Origin: Christensenellales bacterium | GTDB taxonomy: Bacteria; Bacillota; Clostridia; Christensenellales; UBA3700 | Length of the DNA stretch: 64,000 nt | Assembly: GCA_051883415.1 (NCBI GenBank) | Contig: JBJETR010000072.1 | Location: 8,506 to 72,505 of the forward strand | Direction of reading: 5' to 3' | Shown here: piece by piece, positions 12,091 through 53,557 of the stretch | How the letters are laid out: every line of letters begins with the position of its first letter | Position numbering within the stretch: the first letter of the stretch is position 1 | Notes under the pieces: model-generated | Seen by the model: only the letters and a program-made list of their open reading frames with translations | Databases searched by the model: none | Told to the model about the DNA's origin: nothing | Position numbers and translations under genes: made by a program

Positions 12091-12169
12091 TTTTTCTTCC
12101 TTTTTTAGATTTTTGTCGATATGTATCGACTTTTTAAATTGTTAGCGGGAATATTCCATTCCCGCTACG

Positions 12170-13360
12170 TTAGATTAGTCCCATTCTCTTGGCTAATTTT
12201 TCAAATTGAGCCATAGACCTTACCACCGTATCCTTAGATACGCAATATGCTATCCTTACGTACCCCTTGCAGCCAAAGCTACTGCCCGGCACCAGCAATA
12301 GGTTGTACTCTTTAGCTATACTGCAAAACTCCTTGTCATCTTCGATAGGCGACTTGACGAATAGATAAAAAGCTCCTTGTGGGTTGACGTATTCGAAGCC
12401 AAGTTTTTTCAATCCCTCGGTCAGCAAATTCTTATTGTCGACGTAAGGCTTGATATCGCATATATCTTCCACGCATCTCTCCACAAGTTTTTGTTGTAAA
12501 GACGGCGCATTGACGTAGCCGAGTATGCGTGTTGCTACGTTGCAAGAAGCAATCAATTCTTCAAAGTCGGCGCAAGTATCGGGAATAAGCAGATAGCCTA
12601 TTCTTTCCCCAGGCAAAGACAGTGATTTGCTATACGAATATCCCACGATAGTATTGTCGTACAGCGACGGCAAAAACTCAACCTTTGCGTCATCGTACAC
12701 AATCTCTCTATAAGGCTCGTCGCTGATGAGATAGATAGCATTGCCCCACTTCTTTTGCGCTCTATCGAGAGTCGAGGCTAGCTTTGTCAAAAATTCCTTG
12801 TCATACACCACGCCCGTAGGGTTGTTGGGAGAATTGACAATGACGGCTTTTGTCTTGCTAGTCAACAGTCGTTCCGTCACTTCAAGGTCCGGCAAAAAGC
12901 TTGGCGAATTGGCAGGCACCTCGACGATTTTTCCGCCGTAGTTGTCGATATAATTGCGATACTCTCCAAAGTAGGGACAAAATACCAATACTTCGTCGCC
13001 TTCGTTGAGCAAGCTCTTGAGCACAACGTTTAGTCCGCCTGCCGCTCCCACGGTCATCACCACGTTGTTTTCGTTGTACGCCGTACCGTACCGCTTGTTA
13101 AAGTAATTAGCAACGACATTGCGGGTAGTAGAAAAACCGCTATTATTCATATAGCCGTGCAACTCTATCTCGCTCACCTCGTCGACGATATCCTTGATAT
13201 GTTGATTGACGCTTTGCGGTGGCTTGACGCTTGGATTGCCTAGCGAAAAGTCGAACACGTTTTCTTTGCCGTATATTTCGGCAAGTCTTTTACCTTCTTC
13301 AAACATCTCTCTGATTGCCGAACTAGTTGCAATCATCTTCTTCATTTTTTGCGAAATCAT
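12170..13360 (-). CDS. PLP-dependent class I/II aminotransferase (aspartate aminotransferase-like)
   Basis: NSPNNPTG, SDEPY, SYSKSLSLPGERIG (PLP lysine). Confidence 0.92.
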   Translation of the reverse strand: MISQKMKKMIATSSAIREMFEEGKRLAEIYGKENVFDFSLGNPSVKPPQSVNQHIKDIVDEVSEIELHGYMNNSGFSTTRNVVANYFNKRYGTAYNENNVVMTVGAAGGLNVVLKSLLNEGDEVLVFCPYFGEYRNYIDNYGGKIVEVPANSPSFLPDLEVTERLLTSKTKAVIVNSPNNPTGVVYDKEFLTKLASTLDRAQKKWGNAIYLISDEPYREIVYDDAKVEFLPSLYDNTIVGYSYSKSLSLPGERIGYLLIPDTCADFEELIASCNVATRILGYVNAPSLQQKLVERCVEDICDIKPYVDNKNLLTEGLKKLGFEYVNPQGAFYLFVKSPIEDDKEFCSIAKEYNLLLVPGSSFGCKGYVRIAYCVSKDTVVRSMAQFEKLAKRMGLI

Positions 13361-13365
13361 ACTTC

Positions 13366-13860
13366 TTAAGCCTCATTCCCAATTCTATATCTCCAAGCTT
13401 CAATCTTTATCTCAAAGCCGTTGTCGGTATAGGATAGCTGTATTTTTTCCACTGCATTATCTTCCGCATTGACGTCTACAATGACTTTGACGTTTAGCCC
13501 CTCTTTACCCAGCGCCAATTGAGAATCTCTAATAACTCCTTCGAAGCGATAGCCCTTGTCGGTCTTGATGTATTCGCCGTCAAGATTGCTCGTTTTCCAA
13601 TTGAGTGCCAAGTCGTCCTGTCGAGCCGTCACGTCCAAGTCGAGGGGGTTATAAATAACGCCGTCAATCTCGCTATACACGACTTGCTTGTCTTGCATAA
13701 CTATAGTATCTATCCTTACAAAAGATCCTTGCTCTAAGTTGTCTAATGCACTTTGCGTAGTTCTCCAATCCTTAGTCACCTCGAAGGTCAGTGCCGAAGT
13801 CGCCACCAATATAGCTATGACAAGGAGAAAAAATAATAACAATCTACCGTTAAATTTCAT
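13366..13860 (-). CDS. Exported or membrane-anchored hypothetical protein
   Basis: N-terminal hydrophobic helix; overlaps the upstream gene stop; GGAAG RBS. Confidence 0.7.
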   Translation of the reverse strand: MKFNGRLLLFFLLVIAILVATSALTFEVTKDWRTTQSALDNLEQGSFVRIDTIVMQDKQVVYSEIDGVIYNPLDLDVTARQDDLALNWKTSNLDGEYIKTDKGYRFEGVIRDSQLALGKEGLNVKVIVDVNAEDNAVEKIQLSYTDNGFEIKIEAWRYRIGNEA

Positions 13861-15724: not shown

Positions 15725-15861
15725 AAGAATATTATATATATTATTTGTCCGAGTGTCAAGGTCAACTTATCTACGTCGAGCGTCAAGTTTTTGCAAATTT
15801 TTTGTCGTCCACAATCGGATTATATACCGTCAAACCCGATGACTCTTGCGACGTTTTACCG

Positions 15862-16818: not shown

Positions 16819-16854
16819 ATCAATTCCTCATTTTTGCTCATATGTATCGACTTT

Positions 16855-18231
16855 TTAGCACTTTATGTCTTTTCGAAGACCTTTTGGATAGTGGTTTTTG
16901 GCTTGCACCCCGTCCCCCTTGCACCACCCGCAAGGATATCCGTCTACACACACGAGTCCCCAGCCTCTGAAGTCGCATTCTAGAGTCTCTCCGACGTAAT
17001 ACTTTTCGACTAACCCGTCGGACTCGGCGGTGTCTATTATTCTCTTGGCGTCCTTGGCACTCAAGTGCATTGCAAGCGAATGTGACGGCTCAAATCTATC
17101 CTTCTTTATTTCCCCAAGATGCAGTCCGCATCTAAGCACTCTCACGCCCTTAAGATTAGGCGACGGGTGTGGAAGGTAGTATAGATTATCTCCAAAAACC
17201 ACGTTAGGCGAGAGCGTTACGTTGAGATTTTCCTTTTGCCACTTGTCGAAAATCTTTATCATAGCAGCGGGCACTTTGACGGGCTTTTCACTCGCTGCGC
17301 TATCGCTCATGCCCGCCTTTTGCATTACGCAAAAGAAGTGTCCCTCACCCTTGTATCTGTGAGGAAAAACCCTTTGTGCCATAGCTATGCTGTCATATCC
17401 TTTTTCGGTATTGTCTACCTTACAATCGTCAAATCTCACGCAAGGCTCTACGATAGACATGTCGCCGTGCCTATCCAAAAATCTCTCTATCGTCCTTTCG
17501 TTTTCTTCCACTTCGAATGTGCAAGTGGAATATATCATCTTGCCGCCCTTTTTGAGCATCTTATAGGCGCTATCAAGAATGAGTGCTTGCCTTTGCGCAC
17601 ATATAGCGGGACTTTGCTCGTTCCACTCGGCAACGGCTTGTGGATTTTTCCTAAACATTCCCTCGCCCGAGCAAGGAGCGTCGACGACTATCTTGTCAAA
17701 AAATTCTTGCCACCTATCTTGCAACTCGTCGGGAGAATTGTTGGTTACAATAGCTCTTGCTATGCCCATTCTCTCAATATTTTGCGAGAGAATTTTGGCT
17801 CTGGACGGCACTATTTCGTTGGCGATGAGCAGCCCCGTGTCGCCCAACTTGCAAGCAATATGCGTAGCCTTTCCCCCGGGTGCGGAACACAGGTCGAGCA
17901 CAACGTCGCCCTCTTGCACTCCGAGTGCTTCCACCACACTCATTGCGCTCGCCTCTTGGATATAATACAATCCCGCCTCGTGATATGGGTGTTTTCCCGG
18001 TCTTAGGTAGTCGTTATAATAATATCCGCTGTCGCACCAATCTACGGGTTGCAAATTCCCGCCCAAGAGTTCTTCCGCTCTTTTAGGCGAAAGCTTGAGT
18101 GTGTTGACTCTCAAAGATTGGCGAGGCTCGTCGTCAAGGCTTTCTTCAAACGATGGGTACTGCTCGCCGAGCAGTAGCTTCATATTGGCTAAAAATCTAC
18201 TTGGCAAGTTGTCGTGGTATTTCTTTTCCAT
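16855..18231 (-). CDS. rsmF: RsmF/NOL1/NOP2-family rRNA m5C methyltransferase
   Basis: DLCSAPGGK, VDAPCSGEGMFRK, YSTCTF, C-terminal KNHYPKGLR. Confidence 0.88.
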   Translation of the reverse strand: MEKKYHDNLPSRFLANMKLLLGEQYPSFEESLDDEPRQSLRVNTLKLSPKRAEELLGGNLQPVDWCDSGYYYNDYLRPGKHPYHEAGLYYIQEASAMSVVEALGVQEGDVVLDLCSAPGGKATHIACKLGDTGLLIANEIVPSRAKILSQNIERMGIARAIVTNNSPDELQDRWQEFFDKIVVDAPCSGEGMFRKNPQAVAEWNEQSPAICAQRQALILDSAYKMLKKGGKMIYSTCTFEVEENERTIERFLDRHGDMSIVEPCVRFDDCKVDNTEKGYDSIAMAQRVFPHRYKGEGHFFCVMQKAGMSDSAASEKPVKVPAAMIKIFDKWQKENLNVTLSPNVVFGDNLYYLPHPSPNLKGVRVLRCGLHLGEIKKDRFEPSHSLAMHLSAKDAKRIIDTAESDGLVEKYYVGETLECDFRGWGLVCVDGYPCGWCKGDGVQAKNHYPKGLRKDIKC

Positions 18232-18448
18232 ACCGATATTATAGCATAATCGAGAACCAAAAAAAATAGTTGCATAGCTTTTTTGTAAATATTTATTGAT
18301 ATCTTATCCTAGCTTGTCCTATCCAACCCGCTAATGGTAGCTTGGCTTGAATAATAACGATATATGGTGTGCCTATTCACGTATTATAGCATACGGTCAA
18401 TGCAGCACAACGCCTATCACCTTGCACTGCATCGACTTCCGACTGCTA

Positions 18449-18817: not shown

Positions 18818-18830
18818 AATATATCTCCTT

Positions 18831-19259: not shown

Positions 19260-19360
19260 ATTTCACCTCTTTTTCACTCTATGCTTACGTTTTATAGTTC
19301 GTTACAAAAAAATCGCCATACTTTATCGTATGACGATTTTTGTTGACACGTATTGATTTT

Positions 19361-20449
19361 TTACTTCTTTTCGTTTGCGAAGACTCTAAATAGAGGTAGA
19401 CACGCACCAAAGAATTTTTGATATGCCTCGCAATAATCTCTATCTTCTCGACTTCGTTTACAACCTCCCGCACGACAAATCCCGTACAACTTACACTTCT
19501 TGCACTTATCGGGGATATTGAATGATTGTCTTATAAACTCTATCGCCTTGTAGGTATGCGCAAGCTTGTCAAAGTCGCTGTCGTTGATATTGCCAAGCAA
19601 CCATTCGTCCAGACAGTAGAAGTCACACGGATATACGTTGCCGTTGCCCTCTACTACGAATTGGTGCGAGCAATGACCGCACACTCCGCATTGTTCTACG
19701 GGATTGCCCAGATACATATGCACCATATTGTCCAATAGTCTTACGCTGGTATAGTCGTTCCTCACATAGTCTTTGACGTATAGATTAAAGAGCCTTATAA
19801 GGAAGTTACCATACTGCTCCACCGTCATATACAATTCGCTCTCGCTCTTGTCGCCGAAAGGTCTGAGGCAAGGTATGAACTGCAAATATTTGTAACCCTG
19901 CCCCGTGAGGTAACGGTAGACGTCTTCTACGTGGTCGGCTGTCCAACCCGTTGTAACTATCAAAATATTGAAGTCTACGCCTTTGCTTTGCAATATCTCA
20001 ATGGCACTTTTGACCTTGGGGAATGTATAGTTGAGGTCTATATCCAATCTATACCTATTGGCGCTTTGGTCGCCGTCAAGACTCACGCCTAGCAAGAAGC
20101 CGTTGCGTGCAAAAAACTCAGCCCACTCTTCGTCTATCAAGGTTGCGTTGGTCTGCAAGCTATAGTATATCTTACTGCCACGCTTGTTTAGCTCTTTTAC
20201 TTTGTCTACGAAGTAGGCAAACCACTCTTTGCCCGCGAACAACGGTTCTCCGCCCTGGAAGGCAAAGTAAATACTTCCTCCGTCTGCAAAGTCAAGTGCT
20301 TTGGCGATAACGTTGTCGGTCGTCTCGGTACTCATCTTACCATAACTAAAGCTCTCTCTCGAACCTGCAAGCGAATGATAGAAGCAATACTTGCATCTTA
20401 GGTTGCACATACTTGAGGCGGGCTTGAGCATTATTGACAAATCTGGCAT
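19361..20449 (-). CDS. Anaerobic sulfatase-maturating enzyme (radical SAM/SPASM)
   Basis: KPASSMCNLRCKYCFY, FQGGEP, VYPCDF, C-terminal CxxCxxxxxCxxGC; adjacent to a sulfatase. Confidence 0.92.
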   Translation of the reverse strand: MPDLSIMLKPASSMCNLRCKYCFYHSLAGSRESFSYGKMSTETTDNVIAKALDFADGGSIYFAFQGGEPLFAGKEWFAYFVDKVKELNKRGSKIYYSLQTNATLIDEEWAEFFARNGFLLGVSLDGDQSANRYRLDIDLNYTFPKVKSAIEILQSKGVDFNILIVTTGWTADHVEDVYRYLTGQGYKYLQFIPCLRPFGDKSESELYMTVEQYGNFLIRLFNLYVKDYVRNDYTSVRLLDNMVHMYLGNPVEQCGVCGHCSHQFVVEGNGNVYPCDFYCLDEWLLGNINDSDFDKLAHTYKAIEFIRQSFNIPDKCKKCKLYGICRAGGCKRSREDRDYCEAYQKFFGACLPLFRVFANEKK

Positions 20450-20512
20450 AATTCCTCCGTCTACAAAAAACGCACTCGTCTTGAGGACGAATGCGTCTTG
20501 TCTCATTCGACG

Positions 20513-22681
20513 TTAATTATTGTAATATTCCTTCTTAATTGCACGTCTATTGGCTTTGAGGTCTTTCTTAACTTGTTCCATAGTATCTGCGTACTCTTTG
20601 CACAAATCAGGGAAGACGTCTGCTCTCTGGTAGCTCTCGGAAGTATCGTCCGTCAGGCACATAAACCAATTCTTTCTTACCTTATCAAAGAACTCAGGGT
20701 TGTCGTTCTTGTATTGCTTGATATACTTCCAAGTCAAGGTCTCGTTGTCTTTGATAAAAGGTATCTCTGCATAATCGGCTTCGTTGCCCGTCTGTATCTT
20801 GTGGTCGGTCGTTGCAGTGTATCCCACTACGCTTTCCAGCACGTGTTCTCTGGTCACGGTGTATTGTATAGCTTGCACCACTTCTCTCTTCATGTGGAGG
20901 ATAGGGTTGTCTTGACCGTGGATAAACACTGTACCCGTGGTATCCTCGAGCAAAGGCATCATGGACACGCCGTCTATCTCTCTATCCACGTCGCTTGGCA
21001 TATACACGGCTTTAGCGGCGTTGTCGCCCACCTTGCCGGTAATTCCGCACGCTTCAACTAGGGTAGGATACAAGTCTACGAGAGTGGCAATTTGTTCTAC
21101 CGTCTTAGCCGTACCTGCCGTGCCACTGCTAAATCTACCTTGGGTGTCGCCGTCCCAACGGATATAGAATGGTAGCTTTTGACCTGCGTTGTATGCGGAA
21201 TACTTACCGCCTCTCAGCTCGTTGGTAGAGCCTTGCAATGCAGGACCGTTGTCGGAGGTAAATACGATGATGGTATCGTCCAATGCACCCTTGCTTTCGA
21301 GCATATTGAACAGCTTGCCGAGGTATGCGTCAAATTCCGTTACGCAGTCGGCGTAGATGCCCGCACCCGTACTACCTTGGTAGTCGTAGCCCGCATATAC
21401 AGGGGCGTGTGGCCATGGCGTAGCGTAGTATGCAAAGAATTGTTCGTTGCTGTCGATTCTGTCTTCTATCCAGCTAGAAATTTCACTATGTATTAGTCCC
21501 GTAGCGCTGCTTTGGTCGAGTTTCTCCGTGCCTTGTACTATCTCGTAACTACCGTTAGTCTCTACCGAATGATAAAAAGGCGTCATATCGTTGACGTGGT
21601 GTGAACCGTAGAAGTAATCGAAGCCTTGGTTGGTTGGCAAATATTGACCGTAGTCCCCGAGGTGCCACTTGCCGAAGCAACCCGTAGCGTAGCCTGCCGC
21701 CTTAAATGTCTCTGCCATAGTAACTTCGTCGCCGAGCATACCGTCTACGTTGGCACCGAGCTCAATGGAGTTGAATACTCTGGTCGAAGCAAGAGGGGTA
21801 AAGGTGTTGACAGTCGGATACATTACGTTGTCGGCATATCCTCTATACGGATATCTACCCGTCATGAGCGCAAATCTCGCAGGCGAGCAAACGCTGTAAG
21901 AAGAATAGAAGTTGTCAAAGTCTGTTCCGTTGAGCGCAATACTGTCGATATTAGGCGTCTCGAATGCAGGAGTCATACCTGCCTTGCGTGCATTGTAGCT
22001 GGTATCGCCGTAGCCGAGGTCGTCCATAAGGATAATAAGCACGTTAGGTCCGTTTTCTTTTTTGTTGACGTTGTCGAGGTATTCCTTTTCGCCCTTGCTC
22101 ATATCGAATACTCTAGGGTTAGATCTGAGGTTGGTGGTAAACACGAAGAGCACGCTCATACCAACGAGAGCAACGGATACGCTACTTGTGATAGCAGTCT
22201 TGAGCTTGCCGCTACATCTAGCCTTATCCACTATGAGATACATAGCGAGCAAAAGCAAAAATGCCGGTCCGCAAATAATTATATTGCCGACGAGTCTGGT
22301 CCAGAAATTGCCTTCACCTTGCCACAATGGATGTTCCCCACTGACAAATCCCGTATGTCCGTTGTCAATCAAAGCTCCCCAACCTGCGTCTGCACCGTTA
22401 AAAATAAAGTATGTAGCAATGCCGAAGCTTACTGCAACGTAACCCAACAGATACCATAGGTATAGCTTTCTTTTGACGATTACGCCAATGCTTATGAGCA
22501 CAGAGCTTGCAATCATATAGATTGCACCGATGAGAACGATAATGTTAAGACCAATTATCCATTGCAATAGCATCAACACGGCGCCTATGCTAAACATAAG
22601 CAAAGGCAAAACCTTTTTTGCTTTGTCGATTTCTACCGCACGATAGGTCTTTTGCTGAATATTATCCATATTCTCTTGCAT
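20513..22681 (-). CDS. Cys-type (formylglycine) sulfatase with N-terminal multi-TM domain
   Basis: DDLGYGD, CSPARFALMTGRY, GKWHLG, SDNG; about 5 hydrophobic helices before the catalytic domain. Confidence 0.9.
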   Translation of the reverse strand: MQENMDNIQQKTYRAVEIDKAKKVLPLLMFSIGAVLMLLQWIIGLNIIVLIGAIYMIASSVLISIGVIVKRKLYLWYLLGYVAVSFGIATYFIFNGADAGWGALIDNGHTGFVSGEHPLWQGEGNFWTRLVGNIIICGPAFLLLLAMYLIVDKARCSGKLKTAITSSVSVALVGMSVLFVFTTNLRSNPRVFDMSKGEKEYLDNVNKKENGPNVLIILMDDLGYGDTSYNARKAGMTPAFETPNIDSIALNGTDFDNFYSSYSVCSPARFALMTGRYPYRGYADNVMYPTVNTFTPLASTRVFNSIELGANVDGMLGDEVTMAETFKAAGYATGCFGKWHLGDYGQYLPTNQGFDYFYGSHHVNDMTPFYHSVETNGSYEIVQGTEKLDQSSATGLIHSEISSWIEDRIDSNEQFFAYYATPWPHAPVYAGYDYQGSTGAGIYADCVTEFDAYLGKLFNMLESKGALDDTIIVFTSDNGPALQGSTNELRGGKYSAYNAGQKLPFYIRWDGDTQGRFSSGTAGTAKTVEQIATLVDLYPTLVEACGITGKVGDNAAKAVYMPSDVDREIDGVSMMPLLEDTTGTVFIHGQDNPILHMKREVVQAIQYTVTREHVLESVVGYTATTDHKIQTGNEADYAEIPFIKDNETLTWKYIKQYKNDNPEFFDKVRKNWFMCLTDDTSESYQRADVFPDLCKEYADTMEQVKKDLKANRRAIKKEYYNN

Positions 22682-22830
22682 AATTCCCTCCTGCAATATT
22701 TGTTTAATTTTGATAATTATATCATATAATATATCGAAAATCAAGATATAATTATTATAATAGTTAAATAACAAGGCTTTACATACCTCTAGGTTTATGT
22801 TATAATCATTTCGTAGGTAACAATCTTATT

Positions 22831-24270: not shown

Positions 24271-24367
24271 TATAATATCTAAACTTTGAAAGGGTATAGT
24301 ATAATTAGCTCGTTTCAAATAATAAGCTTTCAATCCGCAAAAATAACGCACGAATCACTCGTGCGTT

Positions 24368-25406: not shown

Positions 25407-26498
25407 TTATTCTACATAAATTTTCTCAATTCTTCTTCCCAAACCGCTAAGTAGTTCGTACACACTCGTATCGCCATAGCTTGCAAGTTGTGCCAAATCC
25501 ACCTTGTCGCCCCACATTTGAGCCTCGTCGCCTACGGCAACGTCACTTACGTTGCTCACGTCCACCATACAAGTATCCATGCAAATTCTACCCACCACAG
25601 GTGCGTAAGTGCCGTTGATATACACCCGACCTTTGCCCGACAAGGTTAGAGGATAGCCGTCTGCATAACCTATAGCCAACGTTGCCAGCTTACTATCCTT
25701 GCTCGCAATCCACGCCCCGTCGTACCCCACTGCACATCCTGCGTCGACGTTGTGTAGAGATATAACTCTTGCGTACAAACACATAGCGGGCTTAAGCTCT
25801 CTACCATTCCTTTCGCCGTAGCCGTACGCTCCTAACCCTATTCTTACGGCGTTGCCCCAACTATTACAATCGTTTAAGGTGTCGTCGGTAGCGGAAAGAT
25901 GCAATATCCCGGTATCTATTCCCCTCCTGATAAGCCTCTGAGTCCATTGCCTCAATCTTTGTTTTTGCATACACGTATCGAGTTTTTGTCCCCTTTCGGT
26001 GGTATTGAGATGCGAAAATATCCCATATATTTTCACTCCCTTCGTTTGCGTTGCGCTCTCTACCACCTTAGTTGCACTCTCGCCAATTTCAGCACCTAAT
26101 CTATGCATATTACTATCGACGGCAATATTTATTTTTGCTACCTCGCCCATTGCCGTCGCAATTGTGCCTATACGCTCAATCGATTCGCAGTTCTCCACCG
26201 TCAATATCAACTTATGATATAGTGCTCTCTTGATGCTATCGACGTCGAGTATAGGCTGCAACACCAATATATCCTTGCCGATATCCGACTCGGCTAGTTC
26301 AATGCCTTCGTTGCAAGTCGCCACGCATAGCGCACACGCCTCGTCTTTGACTCTCCTGCTCACTTCAATAGCCCCATGACCGTAGGCGTTGGCTTTGACT
26401 ACAAGCATAAGATTGTCGACTTTCGCCTTTTCTTTTATTGCTTTGACGTTGTTTGCGATATGCGATAGGTTGATTCTCGCCCAGCATCTATCCTTCAT
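25407..26498 (-). CDS. alr: Alanine racemase
   Basis: VVKANAYGHG (PLP Lys), VGYDG (catalytic Tyr), GYADG, GRICMD. Confidence 0.92.
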   Translation of the reverse strand: MKDRCWARINLSHIANNVKAIKEKAKVDNLMLVVKANAYGHGAIEVSRRVKDEACALCVATCNEGIELAESDIGKDILVLQPILDVDSIKRALYHKLILTVENCESIERIGTIATAMGEVAKINIAVDSNMHRLGAEIGESATKVVESATQTKGVKIYGIFSHLNTTERGQKLDTCMQKQRLRQWTQRLIRRGIDTGILHLSATDDTLNDCNSWGNAVRIGLGAYGYGERNGRELKPAMCLYARVISLHNVDAGCAVGYDGAWIASKDSKLATLAIGYADGYPLTLSGKGRVYINGTYAPVVGRICMDTCMVDVSNVSDVAVGDEAQMWGDKVDLAQLASYGDTSVYELLSGLGRRIEKIYVE

Positions 26499-27324: not shown

Positions 27325-27338
27325 ACAATCACCACAAT

Positions 27339-27695: not shown

Positions 27696-28328
27696 TTAGT
27701 CGGACGCTCTCATTATTTTCTCGACGGTTTTCTTCGAATATTCGCAACCACAATAGTTTTGTCTATAAAATCCCATCTGAGAGCTAATCTCGCAAGACCT
27801 CTTGTATCCGTCTTTTTTCTTAAAGTCGTTGGGCAAATGCTTAACTGCGTATTTTGTTTCGCAAGCCTTGCCTATTTCGTTGAGTTTCTTACTATCCTTG
27901 TGAGGTGACACGGACAAGGTAGAAGCAAAATAATCGTAACCTTCTCTACGTGCCGTCTGAGCAGTATATGACAATCTCAGCGCATAGCACGCCATACATC
28001 TTTCTCCGCCTTCGGGGCAGTTTTCTCTACCCTCGGCTATTCTTTCAAAATCGGATTTTTGATGACCTGTATCGAGAAATTTGACTTTTCCGCCCCAACT
28101 TTTTACCAATCTCAGCACCTCGCTCTTCCTCAATTCGTACTCTCTTTCATCGGTAATGTTGGGATTGTAAAACAATAGAGTAACGTCAAAGGCTTCCGCC
28201 AATCTTTCCAGGCAGACGCCCGCGCACGGCGCACAACATATATGCAACAAAAGCCGAGGCTTTACGCCTCGCTTTTTGTTGTCCTCTATGACGTCACACA
28301 TTTGCTGATAAAAGTTTTGTTGCATCAA
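27696..28328 (-). CDS. queH: Epoxyqueuosine reductase QueH
   Basis: LLHICCAPC, FYNPNI, CMACYALRL, YRQNYCGC. Confidence 0.93.
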   Translation of the reverse strand: MMQQNFYQQMCDVIEDNKKRGVKPRLLLHICCAPCAGVCLERLAEAFDVTLLFYNPNITDEREYELRKSEVLRLVKSWGGKVKFLDTGHQKSDFERIAEGRENCPEGGERCMACYALRLSYTAQTARREGYDYFASTLSVSPHKDSKKLNEIGKACETKYAVKHLPNDFKKKDGYKRSCEISSQMGFYRQNYCGCEYSKKTVEKIMRASD

Positions 28329-31183: not shown

Positions 31184-31382
31184 ACTAGCTCCTTGCAATA
31201 TATTATAACACAGCCCCCATACGTTGTCCATATTATCCCCGTCATCTTAGGTGTGTTTACAATATTTTTACTTGTAATAATATGCATAAATATGTCGCCA
31301 ACGCCCACAATATCATTGCGATTTACATCAATAGACGCCAAAAAGTCGATACGTATCGACAATTTTTGTATAGGAGATAATT

Positions 31383-43099: not shown

Positions 43100-44029
43100 A
43101 TTAGAGGCAATCCCTCCGTCTTGCCATAAGCGGCTCGCTCACGGTGGAGATGCGAGTTTGACAAGGAGAGTGAGGACGGTGTGAGGGAGCATACTAATGC
43201 GTATGTGACCGAACGTACCCACATACTCGACACAGTATTGCGAAGTATATACGCCGTGAGACAACCCCTTTGCACAAAGGGGCCTTTTATTAGGTTGAGA
43301 TTGCCACAGCGTGTAAACACGCTTCGCAATGACATACAACCTTTTGACGGTGGAGATGCGAGTTTGACAACCCTTCCACCACCTTCGGTGGTAACTCTTA
43401 CGGCATAGGTGCGAGTTAGGCGAGGAGAACGAGGATTGGGCGACAGGAGCATACTTATCTCAATTCGTAATAAGTAACTAAGTAGTAGTTCTCTCGTGGT
43501 GTAGATACAAGCAAGACAAGGAGTACGAGTATTTTGTGCAGGGAGCATACTCCTTGTATGTGACCAAACAAAAACGTAAGTTACGACACAGTATTGCGAA
43601 GTATATACGCCACGAGAGCGACAAAGCATATCGATAAAGATATGCCGTAAGACACCCTTCCCGAACACAAGGGCGGCTTTTTATAAGATTGAGATTGCCA
43701 AGTTACGTTTCGCTCCACCGCAATGACACACTGCTTGGTCGGTGTTCCAACCCATTTTGACGGCATAGCTGCGAGTAAGACAAGAAAAAGGCAACCTTGT
43801 CGATTGCCTCAATTTGTTATTAGTTGCAATGGTGCCGCTCTATCGCGGTGGAGATGCGAGTAATGAGAGAGTTTGATTTATGTTATTGAGATTTTAATTG
43901 CACAGGTGCGAGTAAGACAAGGAAAAAGGCAACTTTATCGAAGCGAGCGTACTTGGCGTACGTGAGCAAGAAAAGTTGCCTTTTGACACAGTATTACGAA
44001 GTAGATATGCAATTAAAACTCAATAACAC
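43100..44029. repeat. Cluster of nested REP/MITE-like structured repeats
   Basis: Three full ~125-bp copies (43138-43260, 43491-43618, 43892-44018), partial copies, and two GAGATTGCCA...GCAATGAC hairpins. Confidence 0.8.
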
Positions 44030-47000
44030 CGCTGAAGACTTCAACCGACGTCCCCTTCAACATCACGCCCTCGTCGGTATATCTGACTACCATATCGCCA
44101 CCGATTTGCTTGACGGTGATGTCGGTGTCCTTTGGAAGGTAGCCGTTGAGGACGGCGCTGACTACTACGGCACAGCTTCCGCTACCGCTGGCATAGGTTT
44201 CGCCGCAGCCTTTGTCCCACGTGCGAATTTTGACGGTGTGACGGTCTATGACCTTGGCAAACTCTACGTTGGTACGGTCAGGGAATATGCTGTCGTACTC
44301 GAGTTGAGAGCCGAGTTTGGATATATCGATATTGTCGAGATGTTCGACGAATAACACGCAGTGTGGATTGCCCATAGATACGACGTTGAGCATATACTCT
44401 TTGCCGTCTACGGTGTATGGCACGCCAATTGCGTTTTTGCCTGCTAGTTTGACAGGAATGAGTGCCGGTTTGAGAATAGGCGAGCCCATATTGACTGTCA
44501 TATACGTTGCTTCGCCGTCTTGCGTCTTGACGTTGATATCTCTGATACCCGTTGGCGTCTCGATAGTTATGTCGTACTTGTTGACCTTACGATTGTCGTA
44601 GAGATATTTGGCTACTCCGAACAAGCCGTTGCCACATACCATACCTTGAGAGCCGTCACAGTTGAAGATACGCATCTTGGCATCGGCAACCTCCGACTTC
44701 TCGATAAGGATAATGCCTTCCGCACCTACACCGACGTGTCTATCGGACATTCTTACCGCAACGCCCTCAGGATTGTCGATAGTTACACCGTCCAGACAGT
44801 CGAAGAATATTCTATCGTTGCCTGCACTGTGCATCTTGACAAACTTGTGACTTTGTTTGCCCTTGCGAAGTTTGTTGATATCTACAAGCTCGGTATTGTA
44901 CTCGCTGTATCTGCTCATGAGGCAGTTGGCTACCGCATTGGCGGTGTCGATAGAGGTAAGACAAGGGATAGAACGCTCTACCGCCTTTCTTCTTATCTTG
45001 ACGCTGTCGCGAGTCGGCAATTTGCCCTTGGACGAGGTGGAGATGATATAGTCGATTTTTCCACTCTCGATGAGGGTAAGGTTGTTGTGCTCGAGGTTTT
45101 GGTGAATCTTGTCTACCGTAACGACCTCTAGTCCTCTCTCTCTCAGCACACGTGCAGTGCCCTTAGTTGCGTACAAGGTGTAGCCCAAATCTTCGAACTT
45201 CTGAGCGATGTCGCCTATCTCCGCCTTGTCTTGGTCACGCACTGTGATGAATATACCACCCTTTTTCTTCATACGGTAGCCTGCCGCAACCAAACCCTTG
45301 AACAAGGCTTCTTCCAACGTGTCGGCAAGTCCCAAAACTTCGCCCGTGGACTTCATCTCAGGTCCGAGTTGAGTGTCTACGTTGACGAGCTTGGCAAAGG
45401 AGAATACAGGCACCTTGACTGCTACGTAGTTGGACTTTGGATAGAGTCCCGTGCCGTAGCCCATATCGGCAAGCTTTTCACCCAATATGCATCTGGTGGC
45501 AAGGTCTACCATCGGTACTCCCGTCACCTTGCTGATATAAGGAATGGTACGCGAGCTACGAGGGTTGACTTCGATAACGTATAGTTCTTCTTCGTAGATA
45601 AGGTATTGAATATTGACGAGTCCGACAGTGTGCAAGTTGATTGCAAGTAGCTTAGAGCACTCGACTATTCTTGCGAGCATTTCGTCGCTGAGGTTCCAAG
45701 AAGGATATACGGCAATCGAGTCGCCCGAGTGTATGCCCGTACGCTCGATATGTTGCATAACTCCCGGGATAAGTATCTCTTCGCCGTCGCATATAGCGTC
45801 GATTTCTATCTCTCTACCCATGAGATATTTGTCGATAAGTACCGGATTTTCTATCTTTTGGGAGAGGATTACGTCCATATATTCGATGACGTCGGCGTCG
45901 GAGTGGCATACGCACATGTTTTGTCCGCCAAGCACGTAAGACGGACGTAGCAAGGTAGGATATCCTATCTTGTTGGCTACCTCCAAAGCTTCCTCTTTGG
46001 TCATTATGGTGTAACCCACGGGACGCTTGATTTGTAATCTTTCGAGCAACTCGTCGAAGAGTTCTCTATCCTCCGCCATGTCGATATATTCGGCTTGAGT
46101 GCCGAGAATCTTGATATTACGTTCTCTAAAGAGTTTGGTGAGCTTGATAGCCGTCTGTCCACCGAAGGCTACGACTACGCCGTCAGGCTTCTCGGTGTGA
46201 AGAATGTTGAGCACGTCTTCGTTGGTGAGAGGCTCGAAGTATAGTCTGTCGGCAGTATCGAAGTCGGTGGATACCGTCTCGGGATTGTTGTTGACTATGA
46301 CTACTTCGTAGCCCTTGCGTTTGAGAGCCCATACACAGTGCACGGACGCATAGTCAAACTCTACGCCTTGTCCGATACGGATAGGTCCGCTACCGAATAC
46401 GATAACTTTCTTTTTGCCTTGAGAATGAGCTTGGATAAACTGCTCGGCTTCGTTGTCGCTGTCGTAGGTGGAATAGAAGTAAGGCGTCTGCGCAGGGAAT
46501 TCCGCCGAACACGTGTCTACCATCTTGTACGAAGCGTACACAGGATTGGCAATCTTTTTGCCACTAATTCTCTCGATAGAACTGTCGAGGAAACCTACCT
46601 TTTTGGCTTGTAGATAGAGCTCGTCGTCAAGGTCGTCGCTCGATAAGCGCTTCTCGATATCTAAGATATTGACGAGTTTGTTGAGGAACCACCTGTCTAT
46701 TCTCGTCTTGGTGTGAATCTCGTTGACGGTGACGCCCCTCTTGAGAAGTTCGTAGATGACGAAGAGTCTTTCGTCATCACATGCGAGCATCTTGTCTTGC
46801 AATTCCATGTCGCTCATTGCGGCAATCTTCTTGTTGTAGAGGGTATCCATGGAGATTTCCGCACCTCTTACAGCCTTCATCAAGGCTTGTTCGAAGGAAG
46901 AACCGATGGACATTACTTCGCCCGTTGCTTTCATTTGCGTGCCGAGTTGACGGCTAGCGTAGAAGAATTTGTCGAACGGCCACTTAGGGAATTTGACTAC

Positions 47001-48059
47001 GATATAGTCGACCGTAGGCTCGTTGCAGGCGTAGGTGCAACCCGTAACGGCGTTTTTGATTTCGTCAAGGCTGTAGCCGATTGCAATCTTGGTGGCTACT
47101 TTGGCTATCGGATAACCCGTTGCCTTGCTGGCAAGCGCCGAGCTACGACTGACGCGTGGATTGACTTCGATAACGGCGTATTCTAAACTGTCGGGATGCA
47201 ATGCAAATTGCACGTTGCAACCACCCTCGACTCGGAGTGCGTTGACGATTTTGAGCGCCGCACTGCGAAGCATTCCGAATTCTTTCTCCGATAGCGTTAC
47301 CGCAGGAGCAACGACTATACTGTCACCCGTGTGCACGCCGACAGGATCAACGTTCTCCATACTACATACCGTAATGCAATTGCCCTTGCTATCTCTTATT
47401 ACTTCGAACTCGATTTCTTTCCAACCGCTTATACACTTCTCGACCAATATCTGGTGAATAGGACTGAGGCGAAGTCCGTTCTCGGCGATGTCTTCGAACT
47501 CATCTTGGTTGTGAGCGATACCGCCGCCCGTTCCGCCCAAAGTAAATGCCGGACGTATGATGACTGGATAACCAATCTCTCTTGCTACCCTTATGCCGTC
47601 GTCCATGGTATTGACGACCTCGGAAGGAATGACGGGCTCGTTAATCTCTGCGAGCGTGTCCTTGAAGCTTTGTCTGTCCTCGGCTCTATCTATCGTCTCG
47701 GGATTGGCGCCCAAAAGTCGTACGCCCATCTTGTCAAGGAAGCCTTCCTTGGCGAGTTGCATGCTGAGAGTAAGTCCCGTCTGTCCGCCGAGTGTGGACA
47801 AAAGACTGTCGGGACGCTCCTTCTCGATAATTCTCTTGACGGTGGTGAGCGTCAAAGGCTCGATATATATCCTGTCTGCCACCGCATTGTCGGTCTGTAT
47901 AGTTGCCGGATTGGAATTGACAAGCACGACTTCGAGATTGTCTTCTTTGAGCGCTCTGCACGCTTGAGTGCCTGCATAGTCAAATTCCGCAGCCTGTCCG
48001 ATGACGATTGGTCCCGAACCTATTACCATTACTTTGTGCAAATCTTTGTTGAGTGGCAT
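44013..48059 (-). CDS. carB: Carbamoyl-phosphate synthase large subunit fused to a C-terminal DapF-like domain
   Basis: GSGPIVIGQAAEFDY, two ATP-grasp domains (EVNPR), MGS domain, then FVKMHSAGND...CGNG...MGNPH...TNVEF in the same frame. Confidence 0.95.
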   Translation of the reverse strand: MPLNKDLHKVMVIGSGPIVIGQAAEFDYAGTQACRALKEDNLEVVLVNSNPATIQTDNAVADRIYIEPLTLTTVKRIIEKERPDSLLSTLGGQTGLTLSMQLAKEGFLDKMGVRLLGANPETIDRAEDRQSFKDTLAEINEPVIPSEVVNTMDDGIRVAREIGYPVIIRPAFTLGGTGGGIAHNQDEFEDIAENGLRLSPIHQILVEKCISGWKEIEFEVIRDSKGNCITVCSMENVDPVGVHTGDSIVVAPAVTLSEKEFGMLRSAALKIVNALRVEGGCNVQFALHPDSLEYAVIEVNPRVSRSSALASKATGYPIAKVATKIAIGYSLDEIKNAVTGCTYACNEPTVDYIVVKFPKWPFDKFFYASRQLGTQMKATGEVMSIGSSFEQALMKAVRGAEISMDTLYNKKIAAMSDMELQDKMLACDDERLFVIYELLKRGVTVNEIHTKTRIDRWFLNKLVNILDIEKRLSSDDLDDELYLQAKKVGFLDSSIERISGKKIANPVYASYKMVDTCSAEFPAQTPYFYSTYDSDNEAEQFIQAHSQGKKKVIVFGSGPIRIGQGVEFDYASVHCVWALKRKGYEVVIVNNNPETVSTDFDTADRLYFEPLTNEDVLNILHTEKPDGVVVAFGGQTAIKLTKLFRERNIKILGTQAEYIDMAEDRELFDELLERLQIKRPVGYTIMTKEEALEVANKIGYPTLLRPSYVLGGQNMCVCHSDADVIEYMDVILSQKIENPVLIDKYLMGREIEIDAICDGEEILIPGVMQHIERTGIHSGDSIAVYPSWNLSDEMLARIVECSKLLAINLHTVGLVNIQYLIYEEELYVIEVNPRSSRTIPYISKVTGVPMVDLATRCILGEKLADMGYGTGLYPKSNYVAVKVPVFSFAKLVNVDTQLGPEMKSTGEVLGLADTLEEALFKGLVAAGYRMKKKGGIFITVRDQDKAEIGDIAQKFEDLGYTLYATKGTARVLRERGLEVVTVDKIHQNLEHNNLTLIESGKIDYIISTSSKGKLPTRDSVKIRRKAVERSIPCLTSIDTANAVANCLMSRYSEYNTELVDINKLRKGKQSHKFVKMHSAGNDRIFFDCLDGVTIDNPEGVAVRMSDRHVGVGAEGIILIEKSEVADAKMRIFNCDGSQGMVCGNGLFGVAKYLYDNRKVNKYDITIETPTGIRDINVKTQDGEATYMTVNMGSPILKPALIPVKLAGKNAIGVPYTVDGKEYMLNVVSMGNPHCVLFVEHLDNIDISKLGSQLEYDSIFPDRTNVEFAKVIDRHTVKIRTWDKGCGETYASGSGSCAVVVSAVLNGYLPKDTDITVKQIGGDMVVRYTDEGVMLKGTSVEVFSGVIEF

Positions 48060-49120
48060 TATCTATTCTCCTTTGTCATATTGATAAATTGGTCGTATAT
48101 AAAATCCGTTGCTATAGGTCCACCGTTGAAGCTTGGTAAAAACTCGGTGGAGATTGCCGTATAGCAGTCGTATTCCAAGCCCTCTACGCTACCGTCGTTG
48201 ACATTGACGAAGGCTGTTTTTACGCCCTTGGCATCGCTGAGGTCAAGGTCTGTATTATGGTTTTGGTATGTGACAAATAAGCGACCTGTATCGAGTTTTT
48301 TGGTAGGTTGGTTGCTTCCGTGATGTCCGTATTTCATATCTTTGAGCTTAGCTCCGCACGAGAGTGCCATGAGCTTGTGTCCCAATCCTATACCAAGCAT
48401 TGGTAGCTTTTTGCCGACCTTAGCAATATTATCAACCACACTATCGTAATCGCTCACTCTATCACTGCCCGATGACCAAACTACGCCGACAGGATTGGTA
48501 GCGAGTATTTGCTCCGCGGTTGTGTCCGCACCAACAATCTCTACGCTCATTCCTTTAGCAACCAGGCTGTCTGCGATATCGTAAACTTCTCCCAAATCGA
48601 CTAGACAAACCTTGTCGCCCTTGCCTACTATTTTACCCGAATTATTGGCACCTCTACCTTGGATAGACGTGCTTGGATCGTAACTAGCCAGCAGTGCTTT
48701 TTGCTCCTCGTCAAGACTTGACGAAGAAGTAATCAAGGCGTTGACGGAGCCGTTATCTCTGATGATTTTGGTAAGGTGGCGAGTGTCGATGCCTGCCATG
48801 CCTACCACGCCTCGCTCTTGCATCAACTTAGCAATGCAACCTACGCTACGGAAGTTGGATGGCTTGTCACACACCTCTCTGACAAGAACTGCCTTGACGT
48901 GACTGTCCTTGCCCTCCACGTCACTGTTGACGCCGTAATTGCCAAATGCGGGAAAAGTGTCTACGACTATCTGCCCCTCGTAACACTCGTCGGTGAGCAA
49001 AGTCATATCCCCACCCATTGCGGTGTTGAATACCAGCTGTCCCACTACTTGTTTGCGTGCTCCGAAAGCCATGCCTTCAAAGACTTGTCCACTTGCAAGA
49101 TACAAATAAATTTTGTCCAT
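48059..49120 (-). CDS. carA: Carbamoyl-phosphate synthase small subunit, glutaminase triad absent
   Basis: LVFNTAMGG, GIDTRHLT, YGHHGSNQP, YQNH; but GIGLGH replaces GICLGH and FLPS replaces (Y/F)HPE. Confidence 0.9.
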   Translation of the reverse strand: MDKIYLYLASGQVFEGMAFGARKQVVGQLVFNTAMGGDMTLLTDECYEGQIVVDTFPAFGNYGVNSDVEGKDSHVKAVLVREVCDKPSNFRSVGCIAKLMQERGVVGMAGIDTRHLTKIIRDNGSVNALITSSSSLDEEQKALLASYDPSTSIQGRGANNSGKIVGKGDKVCLVDLGEVYDIADSLVAKGMSVEIVGADTTAEQILATNPVGVVWSSGSDRVSDYDSVVDNIAKVGKKLPMLGIGLGHKLMALSCGAKLKDMKYGHHGSNQPTKKLDTGRLFVTYQNHNTDLDLSDAKGVKTAFVNVNDGSVEGLEYDCYTAISTEFLPSFNGGPIATDFIYDQFINMTKENR

Positions 49121-49151
49121 ATATACCTCTCAAAAATTTTCGATATGATAT

Positions 49152-49200
49152 AAAAAAAGAAGACTACTCAACGCATATCACAATGCCTTGTCAGTCTTCT
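49152..49200 (-). terminator. Leader terminator (attenuator) upstream of carA
   Basis: AGAAGACT...AGTCTTCT stem followed by a U tract, between the promoter and carA RBS. Confidence 0.75.
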
Positions 49201-49252
49201 AATACGTAGTGCCAATATCGTTTCGGCTTTTGCCCTTGTACGTTGGTAGCAT
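49199..49252 (-). CDS. Putative leader peptide MLPTYKGKSRNDIGTTY
   Basis: AGGAGA-TTT-ATG; 17 codons; TAG stop overlaps the 5' arm of the terminator. Confidence 0.45.
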   Translation of the reverse strand: MLPTYKGKSRNDIGTTY

Positions 49253-49466
49253 AAATCTCCTATTAGTACGATTGTCAGCAACGAGTATTGTCATTGCTCA
49301 TAGTTGCTCGACACCATTGCCGAGCCATTATTAAAATAATACGCTAAACTACCCCTTGGTGTCAATCTAAAATAGGCAAAAAAATAATATTTATTTGGCT
49401 CAATTTTAATGACACAAAGGCGTGATTTTGGTATACTAAATGCGTATTTTATCTATGGAGGTTTTT

Positions 49467-50888: not shown

Positions 50889-50896
50889 GAGAAAAT

Positions 50897-51877
50897 ATGT
50901 ACCAATCTCAACTAAATCTTATTCAAACCGAAATAGCTATCAAAACCATCAAGGACAACTTTGAAAAGTTCTTAGCAGGCAACCTAAACTTGACGAGAGT
51001 TTCCGCTCCCCTCTTCGTGCTAAACGATACGGGGCTCAACGATAACCTCAACGGCGTAGAACGCCCGGTAAGCTTTGATATCAAACAAACCGGCAAGACG
51101 GCGGAAGTCGTACATTCTCTGGCAAAATGGAAGAGATATGCTCTGCACTACTACGGCTTCGAGGTGGACAGCGGTCTATATACCGATATGAACGCTATAC
51201 GCCGTGACGAGGAATGTGACGAAATCCACTCTCTATACGTAGACCAATGGGATTGGGAAAGAGTCATCAGCGAAGAAGAACGCAACCTCGCTTTCCTCAA
51301 GGAAATCGTAGGCAAGATATACGACGCTATCTATTCTACTGCCAACCTCATCGAAAGCACGTACGGTCTTGAAAACTTTTTGCCTAAACAAATCACCTTT
51401 ATCACCTCGCAAGAGTTGGAAGACATTTATCCCGACCTCGAGCCTAAGGAGAGAGAGAACGAACTAGCTAAACAACTCGGTGCAATATTCATCATAGGTA
51501 TCGGCGACGAATTGAAATCGGGCAAGCCTCACGACAACCGCGCACCCGACTACGACGACTGGGCTCTCAACGGCGACCTCATCGTATGGTATCCCGTGCT
51601 CAACCGTTCGGTGGAATTGTCGTCGATGGGTATAAGAGTCAACAAGGACGCTATGCTATACCAGCTTAACAAATTAGGTGCATGCGACAGACTCGAGCTT
51701 GCTTTCCACAAGGCTTTGATGAATGACGAATTGCCACTGACTATTGGCGGTGGTATAGGTCAATCTCGCCTCTGCATGGTACTTTTGCACAAGGCACATA
51801 TCGGCGAAGTGCAAAACTCTATTTGGCCCGACGAGATGGTGGAAGAGTGCAAGAATAAAAACATCTTTTTGCTGTAA
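50897..51877 (+). CDS. asnA: Aspartate-ammonia ligase
   Basis: NDNLNGVERPV, HSLAKWKR, VDQWDWE, RAPDYDDW, TIGGGIGQSR. Confidence 0.97.
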   Translation: MYQSQLNLIQTEIAIKTIKDNFEKFLAGNLNLTRVSAPLFVLNDTGLNDNLNGVERPVSFDIKQTGKTAEVVHSLAKWKRYALHYYGFEVDSGLYTDMNAIRRDEECDEIHSLYVDQWDWERVISEEERNLAFLKEIVGKIYDAIYSTANLIESTYGLENFLPKQITFITSQELEDIYPDLEPKERENELAKQLGAIFIIGIGDELKSGKPHDNRAPDYDDWALNGDLIVWYPVLNRSVELSSMGIRVNKDAMLYQLNKLGACDRLELAFHKALMNDELPLTIGGGIGQSRLCMVLLHKAHIGEVQNSIWPDEMVEECKNKNIFLL

Positions 51878-51904
51878 AAAGTCGATACGTATCGATAAAA
51901 TTAT

Positions 51905-51934
51905 AAAAGTGACCTAATATATTAGGTCACTTTT
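51905..51934 (+). terminator. Intrinsic terminator after asnA
   Basis: AAAAGTGACCTAAT-AT-ATTAGGTCACTTTT. Confidence 0.8.
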
Positions 51935-52036
51935 GTTTTGGATATTACGTAGCAAAAAGTCTACGTCTTATAATAGTCGTCTTGTTGTTGAAAGCAACGA
52001 ACAATCGTTGAGTACAACCAAGCTATCTAAGCAAGG

Positions 52037-52609
52037 CTATTGCCATTGGGGTAGCAACTTGATAAAGACGTAGTCACCGTCTAACGTGCCCGTAGATACG
52101 TAATTATTGCACTCGTGCATGACGTAGAAGTTGGATTCTACATTCCAACCCGCGAAAGTCTTACCGTCTTGAGTAGGAATTGGTAGTCCATGCCCGAAAT
52201 CATCTAAGTCTTGGTAAGTATAGTATTGATACTCTATCAAAAACCAAACCTTTCTAACGACGAACTCTTCTTCATCCTCTTCTTGCGGAACCGGCAATAT
52301 CTCACCTACTGCCACTTGTACTCTCACCCCGAGCGAAAGCGCCTTGGCAACAAACTCTTCTATCTCCATTCCCGAAGAAGTTGCGTATAATTCCGCCACT
52401 TGGTGGCGAGTTTCGCTATCCTTATATCTACCTAAGTCTTCATAGATAAGCATTGAGTTGTAATAATCGCCTTTGAGTAGCTCTGAGCCTGCATCGGCAT
52501 AGCGTAGATTGGGATTGACAAACCCCACCATAAAAGCCACCGCGCCGATAAGTATTACGGCACACACTACGGTAAGTATGATTATCGGTTTTTCACGAAC
52601 GTTGTTCAT
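52037..52609 (-). CDS. Membrane-anchored hypothetical protein (TPR-like YKDS segment, InlB-B-like tail)
   Basis: N-terminal TM, LGRYKDS, LPIPTQDGKTFAGW; AAGGAGG RBS. Confidence 0.65.
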   Translation of the reverse strand: MNNVREKPIIILTVVCAVILIGAVAFMVGFVNPNLRYADAGSELLKGDYYNSMLIYEDLGRYKDSETRHQVAELYATSSGMEIEEFVAKALSLGVRVQVAVGEILPVPQEEDEEEFVVRKVWFLIEYQYYTYQDLDDFGHGLPIPTQDGKTFAGWNVESNFYVMHECNNYVSTGTLDGDYVFIKLLPQWQ

Positions 52610-52725
52610 AAGCTGTCCTCCTTGTAATCATATCCTACACGATTGACGCTCAATATGTCTGCACCGTTTTGAAAACAATGCAAAGAAATCACGCATCTTT
52701 TTGAAAAAATAAAAACGTTGCAAAA

Positions 52726-53220
52726 CTATTGGATATCTTTTTGCTTCTTGGCATATAACATCTTGAAAAAGCAATAAATCAAACCAACTACGCTTGCTAC
52801 AATTGCAAATATCGTGCAACAAGCCGTAATAACCGCATTGAAAGCTGACTGCGTGCCGAGATAGGACTCTAAACTCCAAAAAGTCTTTTGTCCCCAAAGC
52901 GCAATAAGTACGCAAGTAATAATGAGCCCGACTATCAATGATACGCCTATAGCGACCTTTTGGGCTATAGCTGAGGTAGGACGAGCGGATTTTTCGTTGA
53001 AAGTATTAGCAACTGTTGCGACTGGTTGCTCTACGACAAAGTAGCCTTTAGGTAAAGCAAAGGCTCTCTCTACGTCCTCTAAATGCTTCTTGGACGGTGT
53101 TTGTTTGTCACGCTCCCATAGAGAAATGGTGTTGCGTTCTACACCTATCCGCTCGGCAAAGCTCTCTTGCGATAGCCCTAGCGATAGACGTAAACGTTTG
53201 ATTTGTTGTCCTACTCTCAT
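52726..53220 (-). CDS. XRE-family HTH regulator with two C-terminal TM helices
   Basis: IKRLRLSLGLSQESFAERIGVERNTISLWERD plus two hydrophobic segments. Confidence 0.85.
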   Translation of the reverse strand: MRVGQQIKRLRLSLGLSQESFAERIGVERNTISLWERDKQTPSKKHLEDVERAFALPKGYFVVEQPVATVANTFNEKSARPTSAIAQKVAIGVSLIVGLIITCVLIALWGQKTFWSLESYLGTQSAFNAVITACCTIFAIVASVVGLIYCFFKMLYAKKQKDIQ

Positions 53221-53557
53221 ACTCTCTCCTTGCAAGTATTATATCATATCGCTACCGCCTTTTCAATATAAAAATTTTGGCAAACAAAGCCTCATACTCG
53301 CATAATAATTCTCAGTCTTTTGGGTGGCTGAGGGAACGGGCTGCAGTATAACGACAACGATAACTGCAAAAATTCCGCTCGTCCGTGACGGTGGAATAGT
53401 GTAAAATAAAGCATATATTTGCTATAAAAAGTCGATACATATCGATAAAATTGAAAAGGAGGAACAATCGTTTCTCCTTTTTGATACTAACAAAATACCA
53501 CCCGACATAGCGAGTGGTATTTGTTTTACTAAATATTTATTAAGAGAATGGAAAAGA

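Follow-up and report, generated by a model that had tools for sequence, protein, structure and literature searches.

The DNA analysed here, a 64-kb window (64,000 nt of contig JBJETR010000072.1 from a Christensenellales bacterium), carries genes such as argC, alr, carA, asnA and an aspartate kinase gene, and scattered through it are copies of a short motif flanked by A-tracts. A sequence-only reading of this stretch had described six intergenic copies and offered four options for their nature: a chromosome-organisation site, an RNA processing or stability signal, a DNA uptake sequence or a minimal repetitive extragenic palindromic (REP) element. Across the source genome (G000; 1.53 Mb in 72 contigs, 90% complete) and its relatives, the motif is a terminus-excluded, evenly spaced chromosome signal, and we propose that it probably serves as the binding site of a putative nucleoid-occlusion protein.

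Motif copies in the window and the source genome

Using an iterated weight matrix (score ≥16, non-overlapping sites), we called 12 copies in the window (Table 1). All six copies of the sequence-only reading lie where it had placed them, five with at most 3 mismatches, for which 100 shuffles gave an expectation of 0.00 matches, and the sixth (19338) with 4. Six more had been overlooked, five in open reading frames (ORFs) and one intergenic. Of the first six, three overlap a TAA stop codon (16832, 19338 and 51876), three sit 13–20 bp ahead of a start codon, and hairpin-like sequence, judged by eye, follows three.

Table 1 Motif copies called in the 64-kb window, with weight-matrix scores
Position	Strand	Score	Context	In sequence-only reading
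2922..2946	+	26.5	Inside argC, antisense to the gene	no
10089..10113	-	30.3	Inside HAD-family hydrolase gene	no
12111..12135	-	36.3	Intergenic, start codon 20 bp on	yes
16832..16856	-	29.3	On stop of rsmF-like gene; position shared with two distant congener sequences	yes
19338..19362	-	32.1	On stop of radical-SAM gene, hairpin next	yes
25963..25987	-	29.8	Inside alanine racemase gene (alr)	no
28057..28081	-	18.6	Weak copy inside 210-aa ORF	no
31340..31364	+	36.8	Divergent intergenic region, short ORF 18 bp on	yes
48276..48300	-	29.3	Inside carA; codon position shared with distant congener G003	no
51876..51900	+	35.1	On asnA stop, convergent region, hairpin next; kept in G003	yes
53426..53450	+	34.0	Intergenic, antisense to both neighbour genes	yes
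62454..62478	-	26.9	On aspartate kinase stop; position shared by four related loci (WhiA 77–94% identical)	no

Genome-wide, G000 holds 165 sites, about one copy per 8 kb. This is a strong excess over simulated background, with 194 raw matches compared with 2 and 3 in two same-size order-4 Markov genomes. The consensus, AAWAA-S-TCR-ATAC-RKRT-C-nnn-AAWWTT, gives a signal of about 27 bp, with weaker A/T tracts one helical turn outward on either side (−8 to −4 and +31 to +34), and sequence conservation ends within about 40 bp. The left part, AAWAA-S-TCR-ATAC, is almost invariant and the right part is loose, so that the core is pseudo-palindromic only, and not the 16-bp palindrome that had been claimed. 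A symmetrised matrix added merely 16 weak matches, a 6-bp stem is possible in just 25 of the 165 copies, and arm pairing exceeded that of shuffled columns in 2 of 11 pairs (p<0.05), which is marginal at most. A hairpin of RNA or single-stranded DNA was rejected on these data.

On our own gene calls for G000 (1,337 genes, 87% coding), 69 copies (42%) lie inside ORFs, 91 between two genes and 5 at contig ends. The genic copies are spread over the six possible reading frames (21, 14, 13, 10, 6 and 5), and 21 of them are antisense. Of 117 informative cases, 81 (69%, p=4e-5) have the motif pointing the way of transcription; the earlier statement that the motif's strand matches local transcription therefore stands as a majority trend and not as a rule. 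A plausible reason for the trend is that the A-tract suits TAA stops and lysine codons. Replication does not set the orientation: 71 of 121 copies lie on the G-rich strand (p=0.07), without replichore polarity. Intergenic copies favour convergent regions (33/91 versus 119/768, p=1e-6), and a stop codon contains the start of 20 of 66 copies.

Operator sites for a global transcription regulator, or a signal for RNA processing, would fit the prevalence of transcription-matched copies and the 9 of 46 that lie within 30 bp of a co-oriented gene start. However, divergent promoter regions are not enriched (10/91 copies versus 127/768, p=0.2), 42% of the copies lie mid-gene, half of the sites shift position among distant congeners, and the terminus exclusion and spacing described below would go unexplained. 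An Rfam search of the window gave 0 matches. We regard this explanation as highly improbable. For the RNA processing or stability signal of the sequence-only reading, as for its minimal REP element, the antisense genic copies, the use of six frames and the near-lack of arm covariation all point the other way.

Terminus exclusion, spacing and conservation

G000 and its congeners (G001, G002, G004, G006 and others) make up genus g1; g2 and g4 are other genera of the same family, g4 being the sister genus (members include G009 and G059), and g93 is the genus of another family that holds G254 and G438. In G004, the GC skew of contig C4 changes sign, plus to minus, near position 239 kb; the end of this contig joins the start of C8, a join backed by contig C9 of G001. 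On this scaffold the motif is missing from positions 141,425–321,695, a gap of 180 kb. Measured from the peak of the cumulative skew, the gap runs from −98 to +82 kb. It contains 0 sites versus 21.9 expected, the top score inside is 11.9, and the next largest gap is 30 kb. The gap covers core genes, for example ftsZ, infB and nusA. The matching G000 contigs (162.7 kb) likewise contain 0 sites versus 21.5 expected, or 16.7 after allowing for a gene layout with few convergent regions, and equally diverged DNA elsewhere carries 13.6 sites per 100 kb. Outside this zone, the longest empty stretches of G000 measure 19–42 kb, and two of these coincide with giant surface-protein genes. In G006, the terminus contigs C3 and C5 had none among the matches listed (100 of 103). 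In g4, the 666-kb terminus contig of G059 holds 0 of 7 sites (p=0.06), and in G009, where the terminus was not located by skew, the point opposite dnaA falls within the largest gap (456 kb; p=0.08). Within the genus, sites are concentrated neither at oriC nor at the terminus region (Ter).

Two observations concern genes without sites. The ftsZ gene of G000 (C28:32,207–33,472) lies within the motif-free terminus zone, and a 7,862-aa ORF (C36:88,967–112,552) is motif-free, as are the other giant surface-protein genes. A terminus-specific counter-motif was considered and dropped: TGACGTCA is just about threefold enriched in the G000 and G004 terminus zones, has no flanking consensus and is not seen in G059.

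Copies also repel each other. Only 6 of 122 within-contig gaps in G000 are shorter than 2 kb, against expectations of 32.4 for uniform placement, 34.6 with the genic and intergenic shares kept and 30.3 with one copy per intergenic region of the same class (2,000 runs each; p=0.0005 for each of the three). G004 behaves in the same way (6 of 109 gaps versus 25.1 expected). In G254, 0 of 60 gaps fall below 580 bp versus 11.5 expected, a threshold picked after looking.

Of 100 aligned sites, 97 are kept between G000 and G004 (about 89% nucleotide identity). Divergence between the two in ORFs (n=47) is 0.029 for the motif and 0.106 for its flanks, and between genes (n=53) 0.050 and 0.166. The motif is thus real and under purifying selection, both within genes and between them. 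Among more distant congener sequences (median protein identity 59–88%), 13 of 27 anchored sites have an unchanged position and the other 14 have moved or are new; a further 8 sites have no close anchor, and the shortest of 21 gaps is 1,007 bp. Near-complete retention at short range and retention of about half at long range together indicate that sequence and density are conserved, while position is free over longer times.

The motif might instead be a selfish element, similar to REP sequences or miniature inverted-repeat transposable elements, which a transposase or nuclease has dispersed and which is tolerated at the 3′ ends of genes. The preference for convergent regions, the copies that start in stop codons, and the patchy clusters and near-hairpin pairs of G254 would suit such an element, but 69 copies lie in ORFs in all six frames, nothing is conserved past about 40 bp, arm covariation is marginal at best, and copies repel rather than cluster and are under strong purifying selection. 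The clustered palindromic repeats of this genome belong to a different family, beside GIY-YIG genes, and the published SRM pattern fits 0 of the 165 copies. A selfish origin is therefore very unlikely.

That other repeat family is commoner, with about 90 clusters of GTCATTGCG...GGCAATCTC and GTCATTCCG...GGGAATCTC types, and it served as a control. By cluster count it is not excluded from the terminus zone (8 clusters in 163 kb versus 82 in the 1,369 kb outside), although it is thin there by word count (2 versus 156). It flanks two near-identical small GIY-YIG genes (G000 C12:62,340–63,230, L051; C36:115,600–116,400, L052), an arrangement that resembles that of Ssn nucleases (PMC11893778, in part). 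The published SRM pattern, as read, gave 0 matches.

Occurrence in other genomes and the search for a reader protein

An exact 16-mer pattern of the motif has 112 matches in G000, 53–108 in each of six congeners (6/6), 1–10 in 15/15 g4 genomes, 4 in g2 and 0–2 in the remaining members of the family. Sites in g4 number 7–15 per genome. In an order-wide scan of 350 genomes, only G254, from another family, stands out beyond the genus (33 matches). It uses a variant, AAWWW-nnn-n-ATACAGGT-nnn-nAWTTT, frequently paired 20–33 bp apart, with 82 copies in G254, 13 in its close relative G438 and no more than 1 in the remaining 50 g93 genomes. Among related genomes, the motif is thus abundant throughout its genus, sparse in g2 and g4, and present as a variant in 2 of 52 g93 genomes. 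Across 400 genomes of the class, a pattern spanning both variants gave at most 9 matches, the control level.

In the 782 kb of the approximately 1.5-Mb G254 genome that the analysis covered, the region of terminus genes is empty as predicted, with 1 of 22 orthologs of the G004 gap genes in a site-rich context, and spacing is again regular. Sites crowd in blocks: 33 of 60 orthologs flanking the G004 gap lie in them, compared with that single gap gene and 10 of 67 origin-proximal genes.

Other searches added little. Three scans of phage contigs gave 0, 0 and 4 single matches; two of the contigs, judged by their ORFs, seem unrelated. A metagenome scan returned 12 loci, 8 with genes resembling those of G000 and 4 isolated single matches; a search of sequencing runs gave only contigs, with shares of at most 0.27. 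A de novo 10-mer search of 520 kb of G059 produced no alternative motif. We found no description of the motif in the literature searched, which lay mostly outside subscription papers and supplements and covered Christensenellales repeats and uptake sequences as well as terminus-depleted motifs.

Another candidate role is that of a DNA-transfer signal, spread by biased uptake like the neisserial DNA uptake sequences (DUS) or acting as the packaging start for the terminase of a resident gene-transfer-agent-like cluster. DUS are likewise found in genes and after stops, form inverted terminator pairs, are conserved, show fragment-size spacing and are absent from recently acquired genes (PMC2397512, in part). 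The present motif has dialects too, comEC was found together with a dprA-like signature, no sites occur in giant surface-protein genes, and G004 and G254 share a syntenic terminase–portal–capsid cluster. However, transfer does not account for an abrupt 180-kb gap that covers core genes, the density of one copy per 8 kb compares with about one per 1.1–1.5 kb for DUS, and ComEA and pilin signatures were not found with simple patterns, which is a weak test. Hence the uptake sequence of the sequence-only reading keeps its shared traits but fails at the terminus gap, and we consider it, in either form, an unlikely minority explanation. The cluster itself, a compact terminase–portal–major capsid unit and a candidate gene-transfer-agent-like element, lies at G004 C8:89,000–99,300 (L141), at G254 C2:156,700–166,100 and on C10, C34 and C47 of G000; across the two families its terminases are 60% and its portals 53% identical.

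No reader protein was found among the candidates examined. The ParB family (PF02195) has one match in the 90%-complete G000, and no gene lies between rsmG and soj. Among 74 family genomes, PF02195 is matched in 71, six of which have a second, weak match (E 2e-9 to 3e-4) at a distance from the other one; in none of the 74 was a second full ParB/Noc gene found. By comparison, noc has been inferred to be ancestral to Firmicutes (PMC8136486, in part). Three parS-like sites in G000 (C12, 28.7–29.2 kb) lie near parAB and dnaA and are unlike the motif in sequence. Because ParB has these sites of its own, it is unlikely to be the reader. The motif is neither parS nor a Noc site, with which the sequence-only reading had compared it. 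Signature matches for FtsZ, MinD and SMC are present.

G000 has two TetR genes. One (C36:17111) encodes a protein 56% identical to a TetR of G254, with a site beside each gene, but its distribution does not track the motif; the second had no match in the 1.14 Mb of G004 searched. An 85-aa protein resembling ribbon-helix-helix (RHH) proteins has 429 homologs in a patchy distribution that does not match the motif. Thirteen other proteins fell into ordinary families, or none, in a Pfam scan, and an Atlas look-up of one candidate gave no more than a 0.75 lead. We note that the C36:17111 gene stands beside feoAB (G000 C36:14,419–17,704; G254 C2:141,260–145,420) and occurs in 20 of 74 family genomes. 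The RHH-like gene (L205:678–935; G000 C64:72,977–73,234) lies beside one site, its fold was guessed by eye, it has no Pfam match, and a near-palindrome directly precedes its start. A 307-aa protein with an RNA polymerase alpha-CTD-like domain and WG repeats (L206:243–1166; G000 C64:14,242–15,165) has homologs in G254 and g4.

Within the window, three further arrangements were noted. A single 1,348-aa ORF (44013–48059, minus strand) joins carB to a diaminopimelate epimerase domain (CarB residues 1–1050, DapF 1072–1346). A 753-aa sulfatase-like ORF (20513–22774, minus) lies directly upstream of a radical SAM gene resembling anaerobic sulfatase maturases (19361–20506, minus). Two long ORFs of 1,418 and 987 aa (38568–42824 and 6445–9408, minus) had no NCBIfam match at 1e-15.

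Proposed role and comparison with known systems

The first option of the sequence-only reading, a chromosome-organisation site, is supported by the exclusion from the terminus, the even spacing, the purifying selection on genic copies and the flexible position. Such a layout has precedents: sequence-specific nucleoid occlusion has been described from Noc and SlmA, unrelated proteins that share one site layout, and their binding sites are palindromes, about 70 for Noc and 24–52 for SlmA, scattered, under-represented at Ter and acting as a timer for division (PMC4726725, in part). Noc ties DNA to the membrane and could form an oligomer of 1–2 kb at each site (PMC4331003, in part). By analogy, we suggest with a probability of about 0.55 that the motif is the binding site of a putative nucleoid-occlusion protein that would prevent a septum from forming over unsegregated DNA. 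A sequence-specific protein would read double-stranded DNA through contacts to the core and the A-tracts, and each bound site would nucleate a complex covering about 1–2 kb. Close pairs may be few because a second site within the spreading zone adds no benefit and is lost. The complexes would inhibit assembly of the FtsZ ring, either by a direct effect or through attachment of the DNA to the membrane, and the empty terminus zone would permit division to start as replication and segregation finish.

Several observations weigh against nucleoid occlusion. The 165 copies outnumber Noc or SlmA sites although the chromosome is smaller, and the motif is asymmetric where those sites are palindromic (PMC4726725, in part). 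In G254, sites are also absent from 243 kb to one side of oriC and from a 73-kb mid-arm stretch, so that its layout fits a terminus-related role but no simple everywhere-but-Ter map. The terminus tests in g4 are weak one by one, and the congeners, being kin, are not independent trials. Terminus position rests on GC skew, because searches with two consensus sequences gave no clear dif site. The C36:17111 TetR occurs in 51 of 52 g93 genomes, of which only 2 have the motif, and is missing from the motif-bearing G009, G058 and G059; the RHH-like protein is missing from G001, G002, G254 and G438. Finally, most genera of the family lack both Noc and the motif, which therefore is not a family-wide replacement for Noc.

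A chromosome-architecture protein could also read the site and define the non-terminus domain, as a loop anchor, SMC partner, membrane or pole tether, or aid to segregation or sporulation, without inhibiting FtsZ. Terminus exclusion, even spacing and phased A-tracts fit this equally well, sequence cannot separate it from occlusion, and the blocks and closely paired sites of G254 suggest cooperative arrays. However, the two known families with an everywhere-but-Ter layout are both nucleoid-occlusion sites (PMC4726725, in part), and the genus shows no concentration of sites at oriC or Ter. We hold this role to be doubtful, and nucleoid occlusion to be the better account.

If nucleoid occlusion is the role, a new motif with the same layout would suggest a third solution to its sequence-specific form. 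More tentatively, we propose a third system that evolved independently: a reader unrelated to Noc (ParB) or SlmA (TetR) may have arisen in a noc-less lineage of Clostridia, its map of evenly spaced, terminus-excluded sites being rebuilt in and between genes, and may have moved to a second family in which two sister genomes show differing stages of filling. The motif is a ready bait for the reader protein, and its presence and absence are sharp, being high in the 7 genomes of the genus, low in g2 and g4, present in G254 and G438 and absent from 50 of their congeners. The spacing floor allows the reach of the proposed complex to be estimated quantitatively, and genomes with low, medium and high copy numbers show how such a map is built.

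Compared with known systems, the motif resembles the Noc-binding sites (NBS) of Bacillus subtilis in being scattered chromosome-wide and missing from the terminus (PMC4726725, in part), and the 1–2-kb Noc complex fits its spacing floor of about 2 kb (PMC4331003, in part). It differs in that the 14-bp palindromic NBS consensus has 0 matches at 1 mismatch, and in its asymmetry, A-tract flanks and higher copy number; no second full ParB-family gene was found in the 74 family genomes. With the SlmA-binding sites (SBS) of Escherichia coli it shares under-representation at Ter, and their 24–52 copies come near the 7–15 of g4 (PMC4726725, in part), but the SBS consensus matches one place at 1 mismatch and the TetR genes found do not track the motif. 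Judged by its sequence, the motif belongs to neither the Noc nor the SlmA site family.

Unlike parS, the motif is not confined to a few copies near oriC, and its consensus differs. In contrast to polar sequences such as FtsK-orienting polar sequences (KOPS), Chi and Ter sites, its orientation is not fixed by replication. As with REP elements, bacterial interspersed mosaic elements and Ssn-associated repeats, it is short, near-palindromic and enriched after stop codons, but unlike these and SRM it often lies in coding frames, its copies repel and no hairpin covaries. Uptake signal sequences (USS) carry A/T-tract flanks, as the motif does. The motif is similar to neisserial DUS and pasteurellacean USS in its over-representation, in its location in and between genes and after stops, and in its conservation, regular spacing, inverted pairs and lineage dialects, yet it is about six times sparser than DUS and has a sharp terminus gap. 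Finally, matS, the site of MatP in E. coli, is another dispersed motif that delineates the terminus domain by where it occurs. Whereas matS is confined to Ter (as cited in PMC4726725), the present motif is excluded from it, giving a mirror image.

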